UHGV virus genome: UHGV-0164982 | Length of the DNA stretch: 64,000 bases | Strand: one strand, 5' to 3' | Source of the DNA: a virus | Shown here: positions 11,805 through 17,728 of the stretch, piece by piece | How positions within the stretch are numbered: the first letter of the stretch is position 1 | How the letters are laid out: every line of letters starts with the position of its first letter | The notes under the pieces: generated by a model | Told to the model about the DNA's origin: nothing | Database searches by the model: none | The model's input: only the letters and a program-made list of their open reading frames with translations | Position numbers and translations under genes: made by a program

Positions 11805-12167
11805 TCAGCTTTCGTTGGCATTTAACTTCGTCTTTGCTTTCTCCACCAGCAACTTCCAGATGCCTATTTCATTAGCAGCCGCCTTGATGGCGGCATAAAA
11901 AGCATCTTGCTGATCGTAACGCTGAATCTGTTTTTTCAGTTTTGCCTCCACCAATTTAATTTCATTACGTGCTTTCTGAAGCCGCAGCGCCGCCCGGTTA
12001 CGTCTGTTCTTGTATAGCGCGTTAATCTCTGACAATTGCTTTAATTTACCAGCCTGACTGCGGATTATCGCCTCTCTGACTTCTGCCGTGCGTCTCATCT
12101 GATCTCTTAAGAGTTCACCGTTTTCGATAATTCTTTCAAGGTGTTTGATGTGATCTGCAACTCTCAT
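11805..12167 (-). CDS. coiled-coil protein (P1 pmg-type early operon)
   Basis: 120-aa ORF, overlapping stop/start with upstream gene. Confidence 0.5.
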   Translation of the reverse strand: MRVADHIKHLERIIENGELLRDQMRRTAEVREAIIRSQAGKLKQLSEINALYKNRRNRAALRLQKARNEIKLVEAKLKKQIQRYDQQDAFYAAIKAAANEIGIWKLLVEKAKTKLNANES

Positions 12168-13135
12168 ACTTCACCCTCGCTTGTATCGCCAGCATCCACC
12201 AGCGGCAATAAAGCCCTGGCCATCTTATGAACCAATAGTGCATCAATAATGCCAAGCGTATGCCCCGGCTTAATGTTTAATGCCGCCTCAAGGTGACACC
12301 TTTCCAAGCCACTTTTCTCGGCTTGTTTATGATGATCTGGCGTAATAACGTCGCCCAAAACACGGCTAATTCTTTCTCGTAATTGCTGGGTGCCCGCACA
12401 CTTGATCGCTGTATCGTGGAGACGGTTAACCAGTTCGCGATAAACATGCGGTTTAATGCGGATACGTTCACCGGTGACGCCCTTTCCTGGCCCTGGCACC
12501 GAACTATCCGGAATATCCGGATAGTTGCCATTCACAAGGTCAGCTCGAACATATAGTGTGTCATCATGGTGCTGATTGTGGCTGCACCACGTTAATTCGC
12601 TTAACTCGCCATCTTCTGGCCATACTCCAGCTGTTTGCAGCCAGATATGGGCTGGCGCATCTTGGCAAGGTGTATTAACTGGCAACTTGTAAGTTTGGCT
12701 TACAGGTTCAGCACCATGAAGCATGGCGTCGCTCCGCTCTATGCCATCCAGCGCGATTCGCAGTGCCTGAATTGTGGTAGAGCTATCGTTTGGGGCTATT
12801 CCATATCGCTCGAATACAGCTAAATGGTTGCGCATAATCTCAGGCGTAAGCTCTTTGTAAGCATAAGCAAGAGGCTCTGATGCATTATCCGGCACAACCG
12901 ACGCAGGCGCGGCAGCATAAACAGGAATAACGTCAGCTTGCTCTTTATTGCTTTCATCCGTTAAAGCCCAGAATAATTTCCCGGCAGGATGTTTGAAAAT
13001 ATAAGCAACTGGATCTGCTTCCAGCGATGCAAGTGCAATTTCATAAGCACGGTGCTCAATATTGTCTCGAACGTCCAGGCCGCCTATGCGCTCTTTGATT
13101 TCTTTAATCAGTTCTTTGTCGGTAAAAGTGGTCAT
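12164..13135 (-). CDS. hypothetical protein (P1 pmg-type early operon)
   Basis: 323-aa ORF, translationally coupled to neighbours. Confidence 0.55.
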   Translation of the reverse strand: MTTFTDKELIKEIKERIGGLDVRDNIEHRAYEIALASLEADPVAYIFKHPAGKLFWALTDESNKEQADVIPVYAAAPASVVPDNASEPLAYAYKELTPEIMRNHLAVFERYGIAPNDSSTTIQALRIALDGIERSDAMLHGAEPVSQTYKLPVNTPCQDAPAHIWLQTAGVWPEDGELSELTWCSHNQHHDDTLYVRADLVNGNYPDIPDSSVPGPGKGVTGERIRIKPHVYRELVNRLHDTAIKCAGTQQLRERISRVLGDVITPDHHKQAEKSGLERCHLEAALNIKPGHTLGIIDALLVHKMARALLPLVDAGDTSEGEV

Positions 13136-13647
13136 GCCGCATTTCCTTCTTGCTTATTAACAATTACACCGTCATATATTTCATTAAGGTGCCCTCTCAA
13201 CTCCATGCGCCTTAATGCAGATAACATGTAATCGCATTCAACCTGCTTATTTCCAGTAAATGGCTTATCGTCAGGATTACCCCAACAGCAATTACCCTTG
13301 GGCCACCCATGTACTTTCCGTACTCTTCCGTTAACAACGTGAAGTAATCCCCAGCCAGCTGGTAAATCCTCAACTGAAATAATTCCCGGCTCACTAATAA
13401 AGAATCGCCAGTCGCCCATTCCAAGAGACGGATTTTTACGGAAACGCTTTTTTCTATCTGCCAACAAGTCAGCACGAGAACACTTCGCCTCTATCAGGCA
13501 TGATGCTGAATTTCTGAATCCCATAGCATCTGGCTGTTCTCCGGTACTGGTTACAGCTATAAAGCGGTCATGAAAACAAACCTTGAACCCGTTGCGCTTA
13601 AGGAACTTGTACGCAATCTGACAGAGTTCGCGGTGTGTTAACGCCAT
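13132..13647 (-). CDS. hypothetical protein
   Basis: Start ATG 13647 with AAGGAGAG RBS (MALTHRELCQ...), 171 aa. Confidence 0.55.
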   Translation of the reverse strand: MALTHRELCQIAYKFLKRNGFKVCFHDRFIAVTSTGEQPDAMGFRNSASCLIEAKCSRADLLADRKKRFRKNPSLGMGDWRFFISEPGIISVEDLPAGWGLLHVVNGRVRKVHGWPKGNCCWGNPDDKPFTGNKQVECDYMLSALRRMELRGHLNEIYDGVIVNKQEGNAA

Positions 13648-13648
13648 A

Positions 13649-13837
13649 TCACTCTCCTTTAGTGCGCAAATGGTTTTTCCAGCGGTTTTGCGCCGCGCTG
13701 GGCTTTTTGCAAAAACCACAATCCATCATCCCGTAATGTTTCATTAACCCCATCCGTCGGTTGCTGAGTCTCACCCACTGCCAGACGCCAGGAGCGTTTC
13801 TACGAACTAACAGAATCTTTGCTTTACGGTTTTTCAT
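13649..13837 (-). CDS. small basic protein
   Basis: 62-aa ORF abutting downstream gene start. Confidence 0.3.
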   Translation of the reverse strand: MKNRKAKILLVRRNAPGVWQWVRLSNRRMGLMKHYGMMDCGFCKKPSAAQNRWKNHLRTKGE

Positions 13838-14009
13838 CGTTTTGCTCTCCTGCGTCTCTTTGCTGCTCGTCGTGCCGATGCAATACCGGTATGGCGGCGC
13901 TTTGGTGCCGGGATGATGTTGTCAGCCATCAGGACATGTGGCTTTGCAATTAGCGCAGAAGCCCAAAAACGAGTCGGGTACGGTAACAAGCCGATACATG
14001 CCACACGCA

Positions 14010-14624
14010 TTACTCACCTCCTTTGATGCGAATGCCAGCGGCGCGTGGCACATTAACTTCCACGATGCGCACAGTTGGTTTGTACATCTCAATCGCAGTC
14101 AGCCAGTCAGCGCCAGTCATGCGCTTTTCTGCATCGCCATTAGTCCACTTAACCGGTACACCAATAGCCTTCATCGCGATTTCTATTTCCCCGGCAATGG
14201 CGCTTTTTCCGCAACCAGTAAAACCAGATACAACGACCAGAACTTCACCTTTGGCTGGTTTTATTCCCCGCGCTTCCAGTTCTGCTATGCGCTTACTTCC
14301 ATCCGAGATAACACCTTCGTAATACTCACGCTGCTCGTTGAGTTTTGATTTTGCCAACTCCAGTTGTTTTGTTAGTTCCGCAATACGGCAAACATCGTTG
14401 ATACGCGTTTCCTCTAATGCGTTGATCTCATCCAGTAGTGCCAGCACGGTTTCTGGTCCGGCCAGAAATTTGAAGGCGTTGAGGGCATCAATATCAACAC
14501 CGCTATCTTTAAGTTCCTGTTCGCTTATCAGATCATCATCAACTGGCAACATTAACAGGCGTTCCATTGCCGGAATTGCACGTTCCGCCGCCTCACGCAG
14601 TGCCTGGTAATTAATTTCGCTCAC
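14010..14624 (-). CDS. Ead/Ea22-like protein with C-terminal P-loop
   Basis: N-terminus MSEINYQALREAAERA typical of Ea22-like proteins; GFTGCGKS Walker-A-like motif. Confidence 0.6.
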   Translation of the reverse strand: MSEINYQALREAAERAIPAMERLLMLPVDDDLISEQELKDSGVDIDALNAFKFLAGPETVLALLDEINALEETRINDVCRIAELTKQLELAKSKLNEQREYYEGVISDGSKRIAELEARGIKPAKGEVLVVVSGFTGCGKSAIAGEIEIAMKAIGVPVKWTNGDAEKRMTGADWLTAIEMYKPTVRIVEVNVPRAAGIRIKGGE

Positions 14625-15292
14625 TGGTTGCCTCCTTTGCGAAGCTGTTCAGCAATACTTACGCATATCTCTGCGCCTCTAATCAGCCCCGGAACGTTCT
14701 TGTTTGGCCCAACTTCACCATCAACAAAATCAATCATCGCGTTACGAGCCATATCCACCCCCTGCGCCCGAACTTCAGCCAGGAAAGCGTCGGTGGCTGG
14801 AATTTGCGGCATCCCTCCGTCTGTTGCGCAGATATACGCATCAGATATTTCATCCTGCTGGCCATCAAACACGTAGCAACAGCCCCTGATAAACAGCTTC
14901 ATTGAGGCATTCTCCACTGCCAGCGCCGTGCGATTACCATCCAGCTCTGCAATGCGCTGTTTTGCGGCATCCAGTTCAATCGACAATTTTTCCAACTGCT
15001 CTTGATGCTTCTTGTATTCCTGATATGCGTGCCAAGACTGACCTTTGCGCACACTATCAGTGATATCAGTAATCTGTTCTGGTGTTAGCGTGGCCAGTGG
15101 CTGTGATGGGAAAATAAGCACTTTCCCGGAATCCCAATCAAAACCAGCGTGAATTGACTGAACCTCAACTGAAGGTGTTGAACCAATGCTGCCAGGCGAA
15201 TGAACAACGATCGTTACATCCATATCGCGACGATGGCTGTGGTTGTTGGACAAAATACGATTCACCAACTCAGAAAATTTGGAAAATTTCAT
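14621..15292 (-). CDS. Ea22-like paralog (C-terminal module)
   Basis: Shares ATDAFLAEVRA and AEQLRKGGNQ-type C-terminus with ORF 15576-16394. Confidence 0.55.
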   Translation of the reverse strand: MKFSKFSELVNRILSNNHSHRRDMDVTIVVHSPGSIGSTPSVEVQSIHAGFDWDSGKVLIFPSQPLATLTPEQITDITDSVRKGQSWHAYQEYKKHQEQLEKLSIELDAAKQRIAELDGNRTALAVENASMKLFIRGCCYVFDGQQDEISDAYICATDGGMPQIPATDAFLAEVRAQGVDMARNAMIDFVDGEVGPNKNVPGLIRGAEICVSIAEQLRKGGNQ

Positions 15293-15612
15293 GCTGATTC
15301 CCCTTTCTCTGCTCTCTCCTGTCGGAACATCACTATCATCAGGTCGCCTTTTGTCGCTATCCTGGCTGTTGTACCTGGTTCAATGCGGCTAAGCTCAAAT
15401 GCGTCATAGAACGCTTCTAATGCCTTCTGGCGTAGTTCCTGTTTGCGCCGTTTTTTCCACTGTTTTAGGAAAATGGAACCCAGCCATCGCCATGTACGGG
15501 ACATGATGTAAAGCCAACCGAGAAGTGCCAGACCGGTATTTAGGAGCGTATCGATCGTTATTGTCGTGTCGATATTCACTGGCTGCTTCCTTTGCGAATC
15601 TGTTCCGCCCAT
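15289..15612 (-). CDS. small membrane protein
   Basis: 107-aa ORF with hydrophobic segment LLNTGLALLGWLYI; overlaps neighbours. Confidence 0.3.
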   Translation of the reverse strand: MGGTDSQRKQPVNIDTTITIDTLLNTGLALLGWLYIMSRTWRWLGSIFLKQWKKRRKQELRQKALEAFYDAFELSRIEPGTTARIATKGDLMIVMFRQERAEKGESA

Positions 15613-16453
15613 TCTTCAAGGGATTTCTCCGCATATTCACCAGACAGGCCATCAATCGGATGCGCTTCATTAGCCAACTCTTCTTTCGCTGACAAAATCA
15701 TGCGTGTAACGTCGAAAACTTCACGCAAAGACTTATTGATAAATCCGTGATTGAACGCAGCAGCAAGACGGCTGGCGGTATAGTTAATCCCCTCGTTGCG
15801 TGCTTCAGCACGTACTTCAGCAAGGAAAGCATCGGTGGCTGGGGTTTCGACATTAGGTCGAAGCTCATAATCACAAACTCTTTCAATCCATGGTGATACT
15901 CTGTCGCATTTCCTCTTCTTGCGTTCACCGACCTTGGTTGCCTGCTGAATAATTACCCCCCAGCAAATGCTTTCGACCTCTTCGCTCCATCCATCGCAAG
16001 CATCGCCTCTATAGTCGTCAATTGCAGCCTCAGCAGCAGCGATAGCCTCCTCAGCAGTTTTGTGACACTCGAAACTAAATTCAGAGCCATATGAGAAATA
16101 CATAGCCCCGGCCTTCAGTCTTGCATTCTCCGCTGCCAGCGCCGCGCACTTGGCCTCAAGAGCGGCAACCACTTCCTGATGGTCTTTGTACTTAACGTAT
16201 GAGCCGGAGATGTCATCACCTTCGGTGTTTAGCCATGCGTCATTGCAATTCACTGCGTAGGTTCTGATGCTCATGCTGATGCTCTCCCGCCCCTGACAGA
16301 CACCAGGCCAGTCAATAAAGTATCCGCAATGCCTACCCTCAGACGTGCGCGCAGGATAAATGCCGTTATGACCGGCAAAATATATGCTACCCATTCATCT
16401 TGCGTTGCCTGTTCCGCCGCCTCGCGCAGTTCTTGATAGTTAATTTTGCTCAC
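15576..16453 (-). pseudogene. Ea22-like gene with apparent frameshift near 16395
   Basis: ORF 16271-16453 starts MSKINYQELREAAEQATQDEW then degenerates; protein-like sequence continues in ORF 15576-16394 in another frame. Confidence 0.45.
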
Positions 16454-17027
16454 TGGTTGCCCCCTGAATACGCTTAAACTCGATTACCCACACCCAAGGA
16501 TTAGCGTTCCAACTATCTTCGCCATAAATTGATTTCCATAGGCTACGGAAACTTGGGTAATGCTTATCGCCAATGAGGGTCGATTCTGTTGGTGCGCCCT
16601 CAGCCCTTGCATCGCATTCGCTGATATCGTTCAACCGCTCAACGCGCACGTTGGTAATTTCCAGAAGAATGCGCGATGCCCAGCGCGGCATGTGAATTGA
16701 TGGCGTCCACTTTTCTGATACTGGTTTATTACAAACCTCGACCGGAACCCGGTGCGTTTGTTCTGTCCAGGAGTTACGCACGCTTGCGCGATAAACCAGC
16801 GTTGCGACGTCCGTCGCTTTGCCATGTACCCGGTAGGTTTCGCGAACCCAAATACGATCGCCCGGTTGACCATATGGACAATGCTTGGCAAGCAACTCTG
16901 CGGCCACTGCCCGTCCATAGAATTTTTCTTCAACAATCCTGCGAGTCTGTGTTTTATTCCCGCCAAGAATTGCCCGGACCATCTCATCGTTAAAAATCAT
17001 GCCGCGCTCTTTCACTTCGCCTTTCAT
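16440..17027 (-). CDS. conserved phage protein of unknown function
   Basis: 195-aa ORF (MIFNDEMVRAILGGNKTQTRR...), first sizeable gene downstream of operator at 17206. Confidence 0.5.
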   Translation of the reverse strand: MKGEVKERGMIFNDEMVRAILGGNKTQTRRIVEEKFYGRAVAAELLAKHCPYGQPGDRIWVRETYRVHGKATDVATLVYRASVRNSWTEQTHRVPVEVCNKPVSEKWTPSIHMPRWASRILLEITNVRVERLNDISECDARAEGAPTESTLIGDKHYPSFRSLWKSIYGEDSWNANPWVWVIEFKRIQGATSEQN

Positions 17028-17205
17028 GCATCCCCCTTACCCATGTGCGACGATGCCGCCAAAAGTGATAGAGAACAGCCAGAAATAGATCGCGGCCATA
17101 ATGATTTTGAATGCCGTGTTCATATTTTCAGCTCCTGTGATTGATTGGATACATGCCGCGCCTTGCGGCATGTTTTTATTTTCACTTTCTCTGTTTTAAA
17201 AATCA

Positions 17206-17222
17206 ATATTTATTAGAGCAAT
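17206..17222 (-). promoter_or_regulatory. C1 operator-like site
   Basis: ATATTTATTAGAGCAAT, 16/17. Confidence 0.7.
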
Positions 17223-17728
17223 TATTGTTGATGGAGAAGCGCGTTTTCATACTCCCTGACCATTAACGTAAGCACGCCGTGCCTCCTGAAAACACGCGCC
17301 ACTTCAATCTTATCTTCCAGCGCGAACGCAATTTTACTTAGACCAATTTTCTTAAGGAGATCAATCTTTGCTGGACCGTCATTTCTGTCATCGGTGGCAG
17401 GACGCATAGATAGCAAAGGCTCAGCCCCATTTGTTACGTGCTTACGCAACCAGGCTCGTGTTTTATCCCTGGCTATCTCACAGCGCCCGGTTACAAACCA
17501 GAGGGTGTAAATGCCGGACAACTGGCGCACCATATCAATAACTGGAGTGATGGGAGCATCAGTGTCACAGGCAAGGTTAAACTCGTTCCAGTGCTCTGTT
17601 AATGCACCTTTGCCAGGTGGTGGAAGTAAATGCAGCCTGTCTTCCGTTGCCTCTGATATCGTCCCATCAATATCTACTATGACGATGTACGGACGTTCCT
17701 GGTGTGCGTGTTTATTGAAAATACTCAA
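17222..17728 (-). CDS. HAD-superfamily phosphatase (pap position)
   Basis: 168 aa with VDIDGTI (DxDGT) motif. Confidence 0.55.
   Translation of the reverse strand: MSIFNKHAHQERPYIVIVDIDGTISEATEDRLHLLPPPGKGALTEHWNEFNLACDTDAPITPVIDMVRQLSGIYTLWFVTGRCEIARDKTRAWLRKHVTNGAEPLLSMRPATDDRNDGPAKIDLLKKIGLSKIAFALEDKIEVARVFRRHGVLTLMVREYENALLHQQ

Follow-up and report, generated by a model that had tools for sequence, protein, structure and literature searches.

Shuffled Ea22-like genes, one of them split by a frameshift, in the hypervariable early operon of a P1-type phage-plasmid

Phage-plasmids of the P1 type are common carriers of resistance genes in Escherichia coli and Salmonella. We analysed a stretch of 64,000 nt from the virus genome UHGV-0164982 (the whole stretch is called the window here), with attention to an array of Ea22-like genes at positions 13649-17227, one copy of which is frameshifted. 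All features of the array lie on the minus strand and follow one another in the order pap, the C1 operator Op88 with its promoters, a small hydrophobic open reading frame (ORF), a pmgT-like gene, a cassette of ~4.4 kb, and pmgV. Three Ea22-family loci, a DUF4752 gene, two micro-ORFs, a 171-aa gene and an EaA-like gene make up the cassette. The operon downstream of Op88 is the pmgT operon in P1 and the hea operon in P7, and the finding as a whole, a hypervariable early operon of a P1-type phage-plasmid with shuffled Ea22-like genes, is already known. The interval is probably the cargo of such a P1-family early accessory operon expressed from Op88, that is, a mosaic cassette derived from lambdoid phages in which one gene is split and restarted by translational coupling.

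The C1 repressor operator ATTGCTCTAATAAATAT (P1 Op88/OpmgT, P7 Op(hea)) is located at 17222-17206, where it shares the final base of the pap stop codon and overlaps the predicted pmgT promoters. When aligned with P1, P7 and JL22, it matches P7 Op(hea) at 17/17 bases and P1 OpmgT (the former Op88) at 16/17 bases, which confirms the C1-type operator that an earlier note, made from the sequence alone, had placed upstream of the array. In the P1 record, OpmgT is listed as a monovalent operator under C1 control that overlaps with two predicted sigma-70 promoters. The 17-bp operator lies directly after pap (17728-17222, with a Pfam match to HAD_PNKP) and pmgV is found downstream, as expected of the Op88 operon. 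Between the operator and the pmgT-like gene there is a leader (17173-17037) with a GC-rich hairpin (17173-17151) and the small hydrophobic ORF MNTAFKIIMAAIYFWLFSITFGGIVAHG, which is 28 aa long from the ATG at 17122 (Shine-Dalgarno (SD) sequence AGGAG) or 44 aa long from the ATG at 17171. The leader is near-identical in P1, P7 and JL22, with two variable alignment columns; its ORF is gp98 in the JL22 record and is unannotated in the P1 reference NC_005856.

The operator precedes eleven tightly packed genes, namely the leader ORF and ten further ORFs, including the three Ea22-family loci. The first long gene of the operon encodes a 195-aa PmgT homolog, a short allele of the P7 Upf86.8 type (17027-16440; phrog_874, E 2e-87). 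It is followed by a 60-aa ORF (16453-16271), consisting of an Ea22 N-terminal module and an out-of-frame tail with the frameshift lesion at 16372-16373 (GG, compared with GGG in intact alleles), and by a 232-aa protein (16274-15576; phrog_614/368). The next gene encodes a 96-aa DUF4752 protein (15579-15289; PF15944, E 2.4e-42), whose GTG start overlaps the previous stop and is the start used by the Prokaryotic Genome Annotation Pipeline (PGAP) in record L001; the ORF list has an alternative of 107 aa from the ATG at 15612. Further downstream are a 223-aa Ea22-family protein (15292-14621; phrog_368, E 1.7e-62, profile positions 16-239 of 239), a 204-aa Ea22-like protein with a Walker A motif (14624-14010), and two micro-ORFs of 58 aa (14010-13834) and 62 aa (13837-13649), which as a pair match phrog_13831 and phrog_1380. 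These micro-ORFs occupy a ~350-bp segment that is missing from the closest plasmids and is common behind Ea22 genes in Shiga toxin (Stx) and other lambdoid phages. A 171-aa gene of the P7 Upf89.0 type (13647-13132; phrog families 9263 and 631, function unknown) and the 323-aa EaA-like gene (13135-12164), inside which P1 homology resumes at 12530, close the cassette, and pmgV (12167-11805) is followed by hot, humD, and phd. Ten of the eleven starts overlap the preceding stop or lie within 2 nt of it (junction types ATGA, GTGA, and TAATG), and the pmgT-like gene starts after a 9-nt gap behind the leader ORF. Upstream SD sequences are present at all eleven starts; they are purine-rich and encoded within the last codons of the preceding gene. 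No strong internal minus-strand terminator was found in the operon. The PHROGs families matched by the array proteins are all of "unknown function". By eye, the 171-aa protein has a D...E-x-K pattern (PDAMGF...LIEAKCS) reminiscent of PD-(D/E)xK nucleases, and it gave no Pfam, NCBIfam or PADLOC match.

Membership of the Ea22 family was assessed with PF13935 (Ead_Ea22), for which the Pfam gathering cut-off is 27 bits. The 204-aa protein scored 82.7 bits and the 60-aa ORF, through its first 28 residues (profile positions 1-28), scored 35.7 bits, whereas the Pfam scan gave no match for the 232-aa and 223-aa proteins, which are linked to the family only via phrog_368/614 and shared linkers. The 60-, 232-, 223- and 204-aa products all match phrog_368, each on a different part of the profile. 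An Ea22-type N-terminus (MSxINYQxLREAAE) is present in the 60-aa ORF (MSKINYQELREAAEQ) and in the 204-aa ORF (MSEINYQALREAAER), with 15/27 identical residues, and a module PATDAFLAEVRA ... AEQxRKGxxQ is present in the ORF of 232 aa (272 aa in its longer form) ending at 15576 and in the 223-aa ORF. Thus, the motifs by which the array had been described as three paralogous genes with an Ea22 N-terminus and/or a common C-terminal module do exist. However, BLASTP of the 232-aa against the 223-aa protein yielded an alignment of 28 residues only, at PATDAFLAEVRA, and the three Ea22 loci are not whole-length paralogs; their similarity is confined to short linkers.

These linkers, which comprise the N-terminal MSxINYQxLREAAE, the AALAAENA coil, PATDAFLAEVRA, and AEQxRKGxxQ with the stop codon, are four DNA direct repeats of 33-61 nt with 73-88% identity. 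Linker D1 (14576-14636 and 16405-16465; 61 nt, 85%) spans the ...GGNQ-stop of the previous gene, the GTG start and the MSxINYQxLREAAE codons; the others are D2 (14897-14952 and 16113-16168; 56 nt, 73%), D3 (14766-14805 and 15808-15847; 40 nt, 85%), and D4 (14621-14653 and 15576-15608; 33 nt, 88%). The 232-aa protein is composed of the MSIRTY... start, a short leader, the AALAAENA coiled coil and two modules, M1 (GAMYFSYGSEF...) and M2 (PATDAFLAEVRA...AEQIRKGSSQ). The 223-aa protein has its own N-module (MKFSKFSELV...) instead of an Ea22 N-terminus, followed by the coiled coil, PATDAFLAEVRA, and a short C-terminal domain (CTD) ending AEQLRKGGNQ. Residues 14-83 of the 223-aa protein show a weak similarity, below significance (E 0.011), to a multi-ubiquitin-domain protein (PDB 9d59), and this N-module might have a beta-grasp-like fold.

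Proteins in databases swap modules exactly at these linkers. For instance, in P0081 the N-module of the 223-aa gene is fused at AALAAENA to the 232-aa body, P0200 combines an intact form of the split N-module with the coil and P-loop module found in the 204-aa protein, and P0109/P0113 are further chimeras. The 232-aa body also occurs behind N-modules without the Ea22 motif (P0083, P0085-P0087, and P0090). The suggestion that the family members recombine is therefore borne out by both the linker repeats and the chimeras. A search with the C-terminal half of the 232-aa protein retrieved 880 clusters (50% identity, E <= 0.001), whose matches form two separable blocks (query aa 1-110 and 87-178), with M1 and M2 often apart; thus, the family is better described as a kit of modules than as a set of duplicated genes. 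Partial matches were present in 425 phage records, mostly Stx-converting and other lambdoid phages, and in one chromosomal prophage the 60-aa split allele and two more Ea22-like genes are located between an anti-RecBCD gene and xis/int, the classical ea/ead position. Judging from these sequence relationships, the lambdoid/P22-like exo-xis ("ea/ead") gene pool is the source of the cassette.

The gene ends themselves offer a plausible explanation for part of this pattern. Ea22 proteins have a terminal K/R-G-E ("+GE") motif described as of unknown significance (PMC7093339), and it is variably matched here (KGGE in the 204-aa, TKGE in the 62-aa, RKGGNQ in the 223-aa and RKGSSQ in the 232-aa product). 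We observed that basic-Gly-Gly/Glu ends are encoded by AAAGGAGG-type sequences, which lie 5-9 nt before the next start and form the SD of the next gene; gene ends of this kind are found at the junctions at 16274, 15579, 15292, 14624, 14010, 13837, 13647, and 13135. "+GE"-type ends may plausibly be conserved because their codons double as the SD of the next overlapping gene, and gene ends would serve as recombination linkers because they carry this signal. The 62-aa micro-ORF ends AAQNRWKNHLRTKGE, and the same ending is found on a 146-aa Ea22-family product in record L037, hence the micro-ORFs appear to share junction linkers with Ea22 genes too.

The lesion in the frameshifted copy is a 1-nt deletion, CCGGTCAT in the window versus CCGGGTCAT in intact copies (GGG to GG). 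Intact relatives read ...DEWVAYILPGHNGIYPARTSEGRH... or ...QDEWVAYILPGHNGIYPARTSEGRHCGYFIDWPG... at the protein level, showing that the native frame runs through VAYILP with the lesion directly after it. The earlier note was thus right that one copy is frameshifted, but the junction lies not at 16380-16400 but slightly downstream, at 16372-16373. A shift at the GGG of GAATGGGTA (16393-16391) was also considered and rejected, as intact relatives keep the native frame through VAYILP. The resulting 60-aa ORF consists of 27 native-frame residues of the Ea22 N-module and a 33-aa out-of-frame tail, and its UGA overlaps the AUG of the 232-aa ORF (AUGA), with the SD GGGAGAG upstream; a longer body ORF of 272 aa from the ATG at 16394 is without an SD sequence. 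The 60-aa and 232-aa ORFs represent the halves of a single Ea22-family gene; about 80-90% of its copies are intact. RefSeq annotates them as two genes (WP_001354544.1 with 60 aa and WP_000027853.1 with 232 aa), PHROGs holds a dedicated family for the 60-aa product (phrog_14804, E 8e-41), and the 232-aa product shows no difference, in the region aligned, from the 232-aa cluster P0001, which has 26 members.

We then looked at how the two alleles are distributed. Among the E. coli complete-genome records with this module (n=235, chromosomes and plasmids), the exact GG allele was found in 22, from chromosomes as well as plasmids, and the exact GGG allele in 193, and a pattern scan of IMG/VR gave 81 loci, of which 74 had GGG and 7 had GG, one of the latter being identical to the window over the compared stretch. 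Both sets contain clonal strains, and these counts are therefore not evidence of selection. The plasmids NZ_CP101271.1 and NZ_CP070907.1 carry the same split with 99.8% identity over 911 nt. A second split allele, a TG duplication (CATTG[TG]CGG) 42 nt downstream, was present in 19 IMG/VR loci with the intact sequence at the first position (including L006, L012, L013, L016, and L021); it enters the same alternative frame and yields a 61-aa ORF ending at the same UGA. The N-module has a third lesion, another 1-nt deletion, in L029, and copies of it are rearranged or interrupted in L025 and in L030/L035 (three copies). In 22/22 complete frameshift loci, the downstream ORF from the AUG is uninterrupted, with 7 different C-terminal ends. 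A repaired, frame-corrected protein was also used as the query for a search of 5.8 billion proteins. Among the 120 best-scoring proteins listed, full-length relatives had 285-293 aa and covered 100% of the query, the best being 83% identical, and none was an intact 292-aa parent of this exact gene.

A functional gene split with coupled re-initiation at the AUGA would be the most likely state of the frameshifted copy, because the downstream ORF is intact, the AUGA is preceded by an SD, no exact intact parent was among the proteins listed, and relatives without the N-domain exist. The alternative that the copy is a dead pseudogene, in which the deletion abolishes the protein, the 60- and 232-aa ORFs are annotation artefacts and the remnant hitch-hikes in the operon, was one of the options originally raised; it is possible but unlikely. 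The Ea22 N-domain is indeed truncated after 27 native residues, the GG allele is in the minority (22 records versus 193), and the other ways in which the N-module is broken elsewhere (the +TG allele, L029, L025, and L030/L035) suggest relaxed constraint on this module. However, no second lesion has accumulated downstream in any of the 22 complete loci despite their 7 C-terminal ends, the restart AUG is part of an AUGA overlap and is preceded by a GGGAGAG SD, the same body is found in natural full-length relatives that have no Ea22 N-domain, and two independent indels end at the same UGA. It has to be asked as well whether the split itself is adaptive, i.e. the N-domain has already been cut after ...DWPG and joined to a foreign leader, and indels ending on the AUGA have been selected repeatedly. 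This would be a rather doubtful extension of the functional split, yet if it were true, the split would release a coupled effector free of the N-domain together with a new 60-aa peptide with a hydrophobic out-of-frame tail, and frameshift fission would regularly serve to re-sort Ea22 modules.

Sequencing error had been offered as another option, and a base-call or assembly error concealing an intact Ea22-like gene of ~292 aa could be suspected, as the missing base belongs to a short run of G (GGG to GG), a context in which bases are dropped by some platforms. This is very improbable, and an isolated base-call error is excluded. Exactly the same 61-nt allele recurs in 22 complete-genome records of unrelated projects as well as 7 IMG/VR contigs, the two plasmids mentioned above match the locus with 99.8% identity, both halves have RefSeq proteins and the 60-aa product its PHROGs family, and no intact protein with the exact body is among the best matches listed. 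Least credible of all is the proposed recoding site, namely programmed -1 ribosomal frameshifting or transcriptional slippage into a full-length Ea22-like protein, since, although the body is read in the -1 frame with respect to the start and this frame is open across the entire 120-nt overlap, and the split arrangement is widespread, a scan of 16453-16271 revealed neither an X XXY YYZ heptamer nor a homopolymer of at least 5 in the overlap, the majority GGG allele encodes the fusion directly, and the second split allele uses a different indel with no conserved shift site. Accordingly, the frameshifted array needs no read-level rescue and holds no recoding signal, and represents standard shuffled cargo of a known hot spot.

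With regard to function, the P-loop GFTGCGKS reported for one of the genes was verified in the 204-aa protein at aa 134-141 (nt 14225-14202), where it fits Walker A (GxxxxGK[ST]). The protein is 100% identical to P0121, which is present on 33 contigs. In an AlphaFold2 (AF2) model, a strand (127-132) and a helix (140-153) are predicted to flank the motif, as in a Walker A context; the model further has N-terminal helices, a confident 62-residue helix at aa 57-118 (block-mean predicted local distance difference test (pLDDT) 65-90, highest through aa 100) and a separate C-terminal module, which is consistent with the three-part Ea22 architecture of N-region, coiled coil, and CTD. Although the Walker A motif does not vary among 24 homologs, the entire P-loop module is near-invariant, and conservation of the motif is therefore uninformative on function. 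The best Pfam score of this ~85-aa module, 17.6 bits for APS_kinase, is below the cut-off of 21.1. When 40 diverse relatives of the C-terminal half were scanned against Pfam, no shared family emerged, and an NCBIfam scan of the array proteins gave no meaningful match.

Lambda Ea22 is a tetramer composed of an N-segment, a coiled coil and a CTD, and is pro-lysogenic (PMC10834534 and PMC7093339). Considering the operator, we propose that the operon would be silent in the plasmid prophage when C1 is bound; upon infection or induction it would be transcribed early, as a single unit. The 232-aa protein would be made by termination-reinitiation at the AUGA and, like many of its natural relatives, would be without an Ea22 N-domain. 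If the analogy to Ea22 of lambda and Stx phages holds, the proteins may be coiled-coil oligomers that display interchangeable C-terminal modules to host partners, and may tune the balance between lysis and lysogeny or of host takeover while being dispensable for plaque formation. Alternatively, rather than tuning development, the array might be an island for anti-phage defence or counter-defence. In favour of this, the array occupies a hypervariable hot spot for accessory genes in a temperate element (PMC9603915), its C-terminal modules are rapidly shuffled and include a P-loop motif, and homologs in lambdoid prophages adjoin ral and anti-RecBCD genes. We consider this improbable, as 0/10 proteins had a PADLOC match (E up to 0.01) and there was no match suggesting an enzyme, with none in NCBIfam and only sub-threshold P-loop matches in Pfam; C1 repression would also silence defence in the lysogen, although it would suit counter-defence.

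Several observations weigh against our reading of the operon as a tuning module with a functional split gene. The intact downstream ORF could reflect a young mutation spread by recombination instead of selection, and the SD-to-AUG spacing of ~9 nt at the restart is at the long end of the usual range. C1 control is predicted from operator identity and from the P1 and P7 annotations. The P-loop module is poorly modelled (pLDDT 31-60 over aa 120-204), and the AF2 model of the 232-aa protein is unusable (mean pLDDT 42, with a helix at 26-55 only, at low confidence). PDB searches with the 204-, 232- and 223-aa sequences and with a 40-sequence profile of the C-terminal half produced only chance-level coiled-coil matches. 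The proposed function is an extrapolation from the Ea22 proteins of lambda and Stx phages, which have unrelated CTDs, and a "pro-lysogenic" role may not transfer to P1, which is without an integration step.

The reference P1 genome can also be placed in relation to this cassette. BLAST revealed identity of the backbone from 19500 to 16972 and again from 12530, and thus ~4.4 kb here replaces ~0.65 kb of P1. Comparison of the P1 region (L005, NC_005856, 10489-11558) with window positions 12164-13135 and 16440-17027 showed that the 195-aa protein has 47% identity to aa 1-232 of P1 PmgT (E 2e-57), that P1 PmgU corresponds to the last 111 aa of the 323-aa EaA-like protein (94% identity), and that PmgT aa 235-308 are an out-of-frame reading of the DNA encoding PmgU and the C-terminus of the 323-aa protein. 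Because PmgU and the PmgT tail derive from the DNA of the 323-aa gene while PmgT aa 1-232 match the 195-aa protein, pmgT/pmgU of reference P1 looks like a deletion scar, and P1 would be derived from a cassette-bearing ancestor, as opposed to the window having gained an odd insertion in a P1 backbone. The genes in question are not the ordinary, intact pmg genes of P1 with a base-call error, the case that would have refuted the earlier note; only the 195-aa gene is a pmgT homolog. The genes pmgT, pmgU, and pmgV are non-essential in P1 (PMC10695390), and in a survey of 77 P1-like phage-plasmids pmgT-humD was one of eight highly variable regions, "variable region 8" (PMC9603915). Arrays of two Ea22-like genes and a DUF4752 gene are routine in P1-sized plasmids in PLSDB, and most of those among the best matches have two Ea22-like genes at this site; the exact combination of the cassette was in no PLSDB record, and the best coverage was 82% of 12100-17300. 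For annotators, the 60- and 232-aa ORFs should be regarded as one split gene, K-G-G/K-G-E ends coincide with the ribosome-binding site of the next gene, and reference pmgT/pmgU is apparently the scar of a deleted cassette.

Tandem, recombining Ea22-like genes had been regarded as unusual for the P1 backbone, which does not hold in view of Ea22/Ead genes at the same site in P7 (upf88.3) and JL22 (ra22). The P7 hea operon (AF503408) has an identical operator, pap upstream and a pmgV-like gene downstream, and shares with the window the short PmgT homolog, an Ea22/Ead-family gene and the Upf89.0 and Upf89.5 types; upf86.8 through upf89.5 lie behind Op(hea), including Upf88.3, which was noted as Ead-like in 2003. 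However, P7 has a single Ead-like gene and a putative phosphatase, whereas the window has three Ea22-family loci, the DUF4752 gene and two micro-ORFs, and DNA identity between them is lost between 16449 and 13660. The plasmids pEC21Z048-103K (NZ_CP101271.1) and NZ_CP070907.1 resemble the window in gene order from pap to the second Ea22-like gene and in the 60-aa and 232-aa split, but differ in that they lack the ~350-bp micro-ORF segment, have a last Ea22-like gene that is 18 nt longer and provide the 82% coverage given above. In variable region 6/8 of JL22 (gp99-gp101-adsM-ra22-gp104; PMC9603915), pmgT is likewise replaced by an Ea22-bearing cassette with 171-aa and EaA-type genes; unlike the window, this cassette has a methyltransferase, a single Ea22 gene (ra22) and no split copy. 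With respect to Ea22 of lambda and Stx phages (PMC7093339 and PMC10834534), the window differs in being a P1-type plasmid prophage with a C1 operator instead of pL, in having three tandem family members, two of them without the Ea22 N-domain, and in having C-terminal modules that are unrelated to the lambda CTD and have no sequence match in PDB. What the two have in common is the PF13935 N-terminus, the central coiled coil, interchangeable CTDs, for the 204-aa protein an ending of the basic-Gly-Glu type (KGGE), and the position of the genes among the early genes under the prophage repressor.

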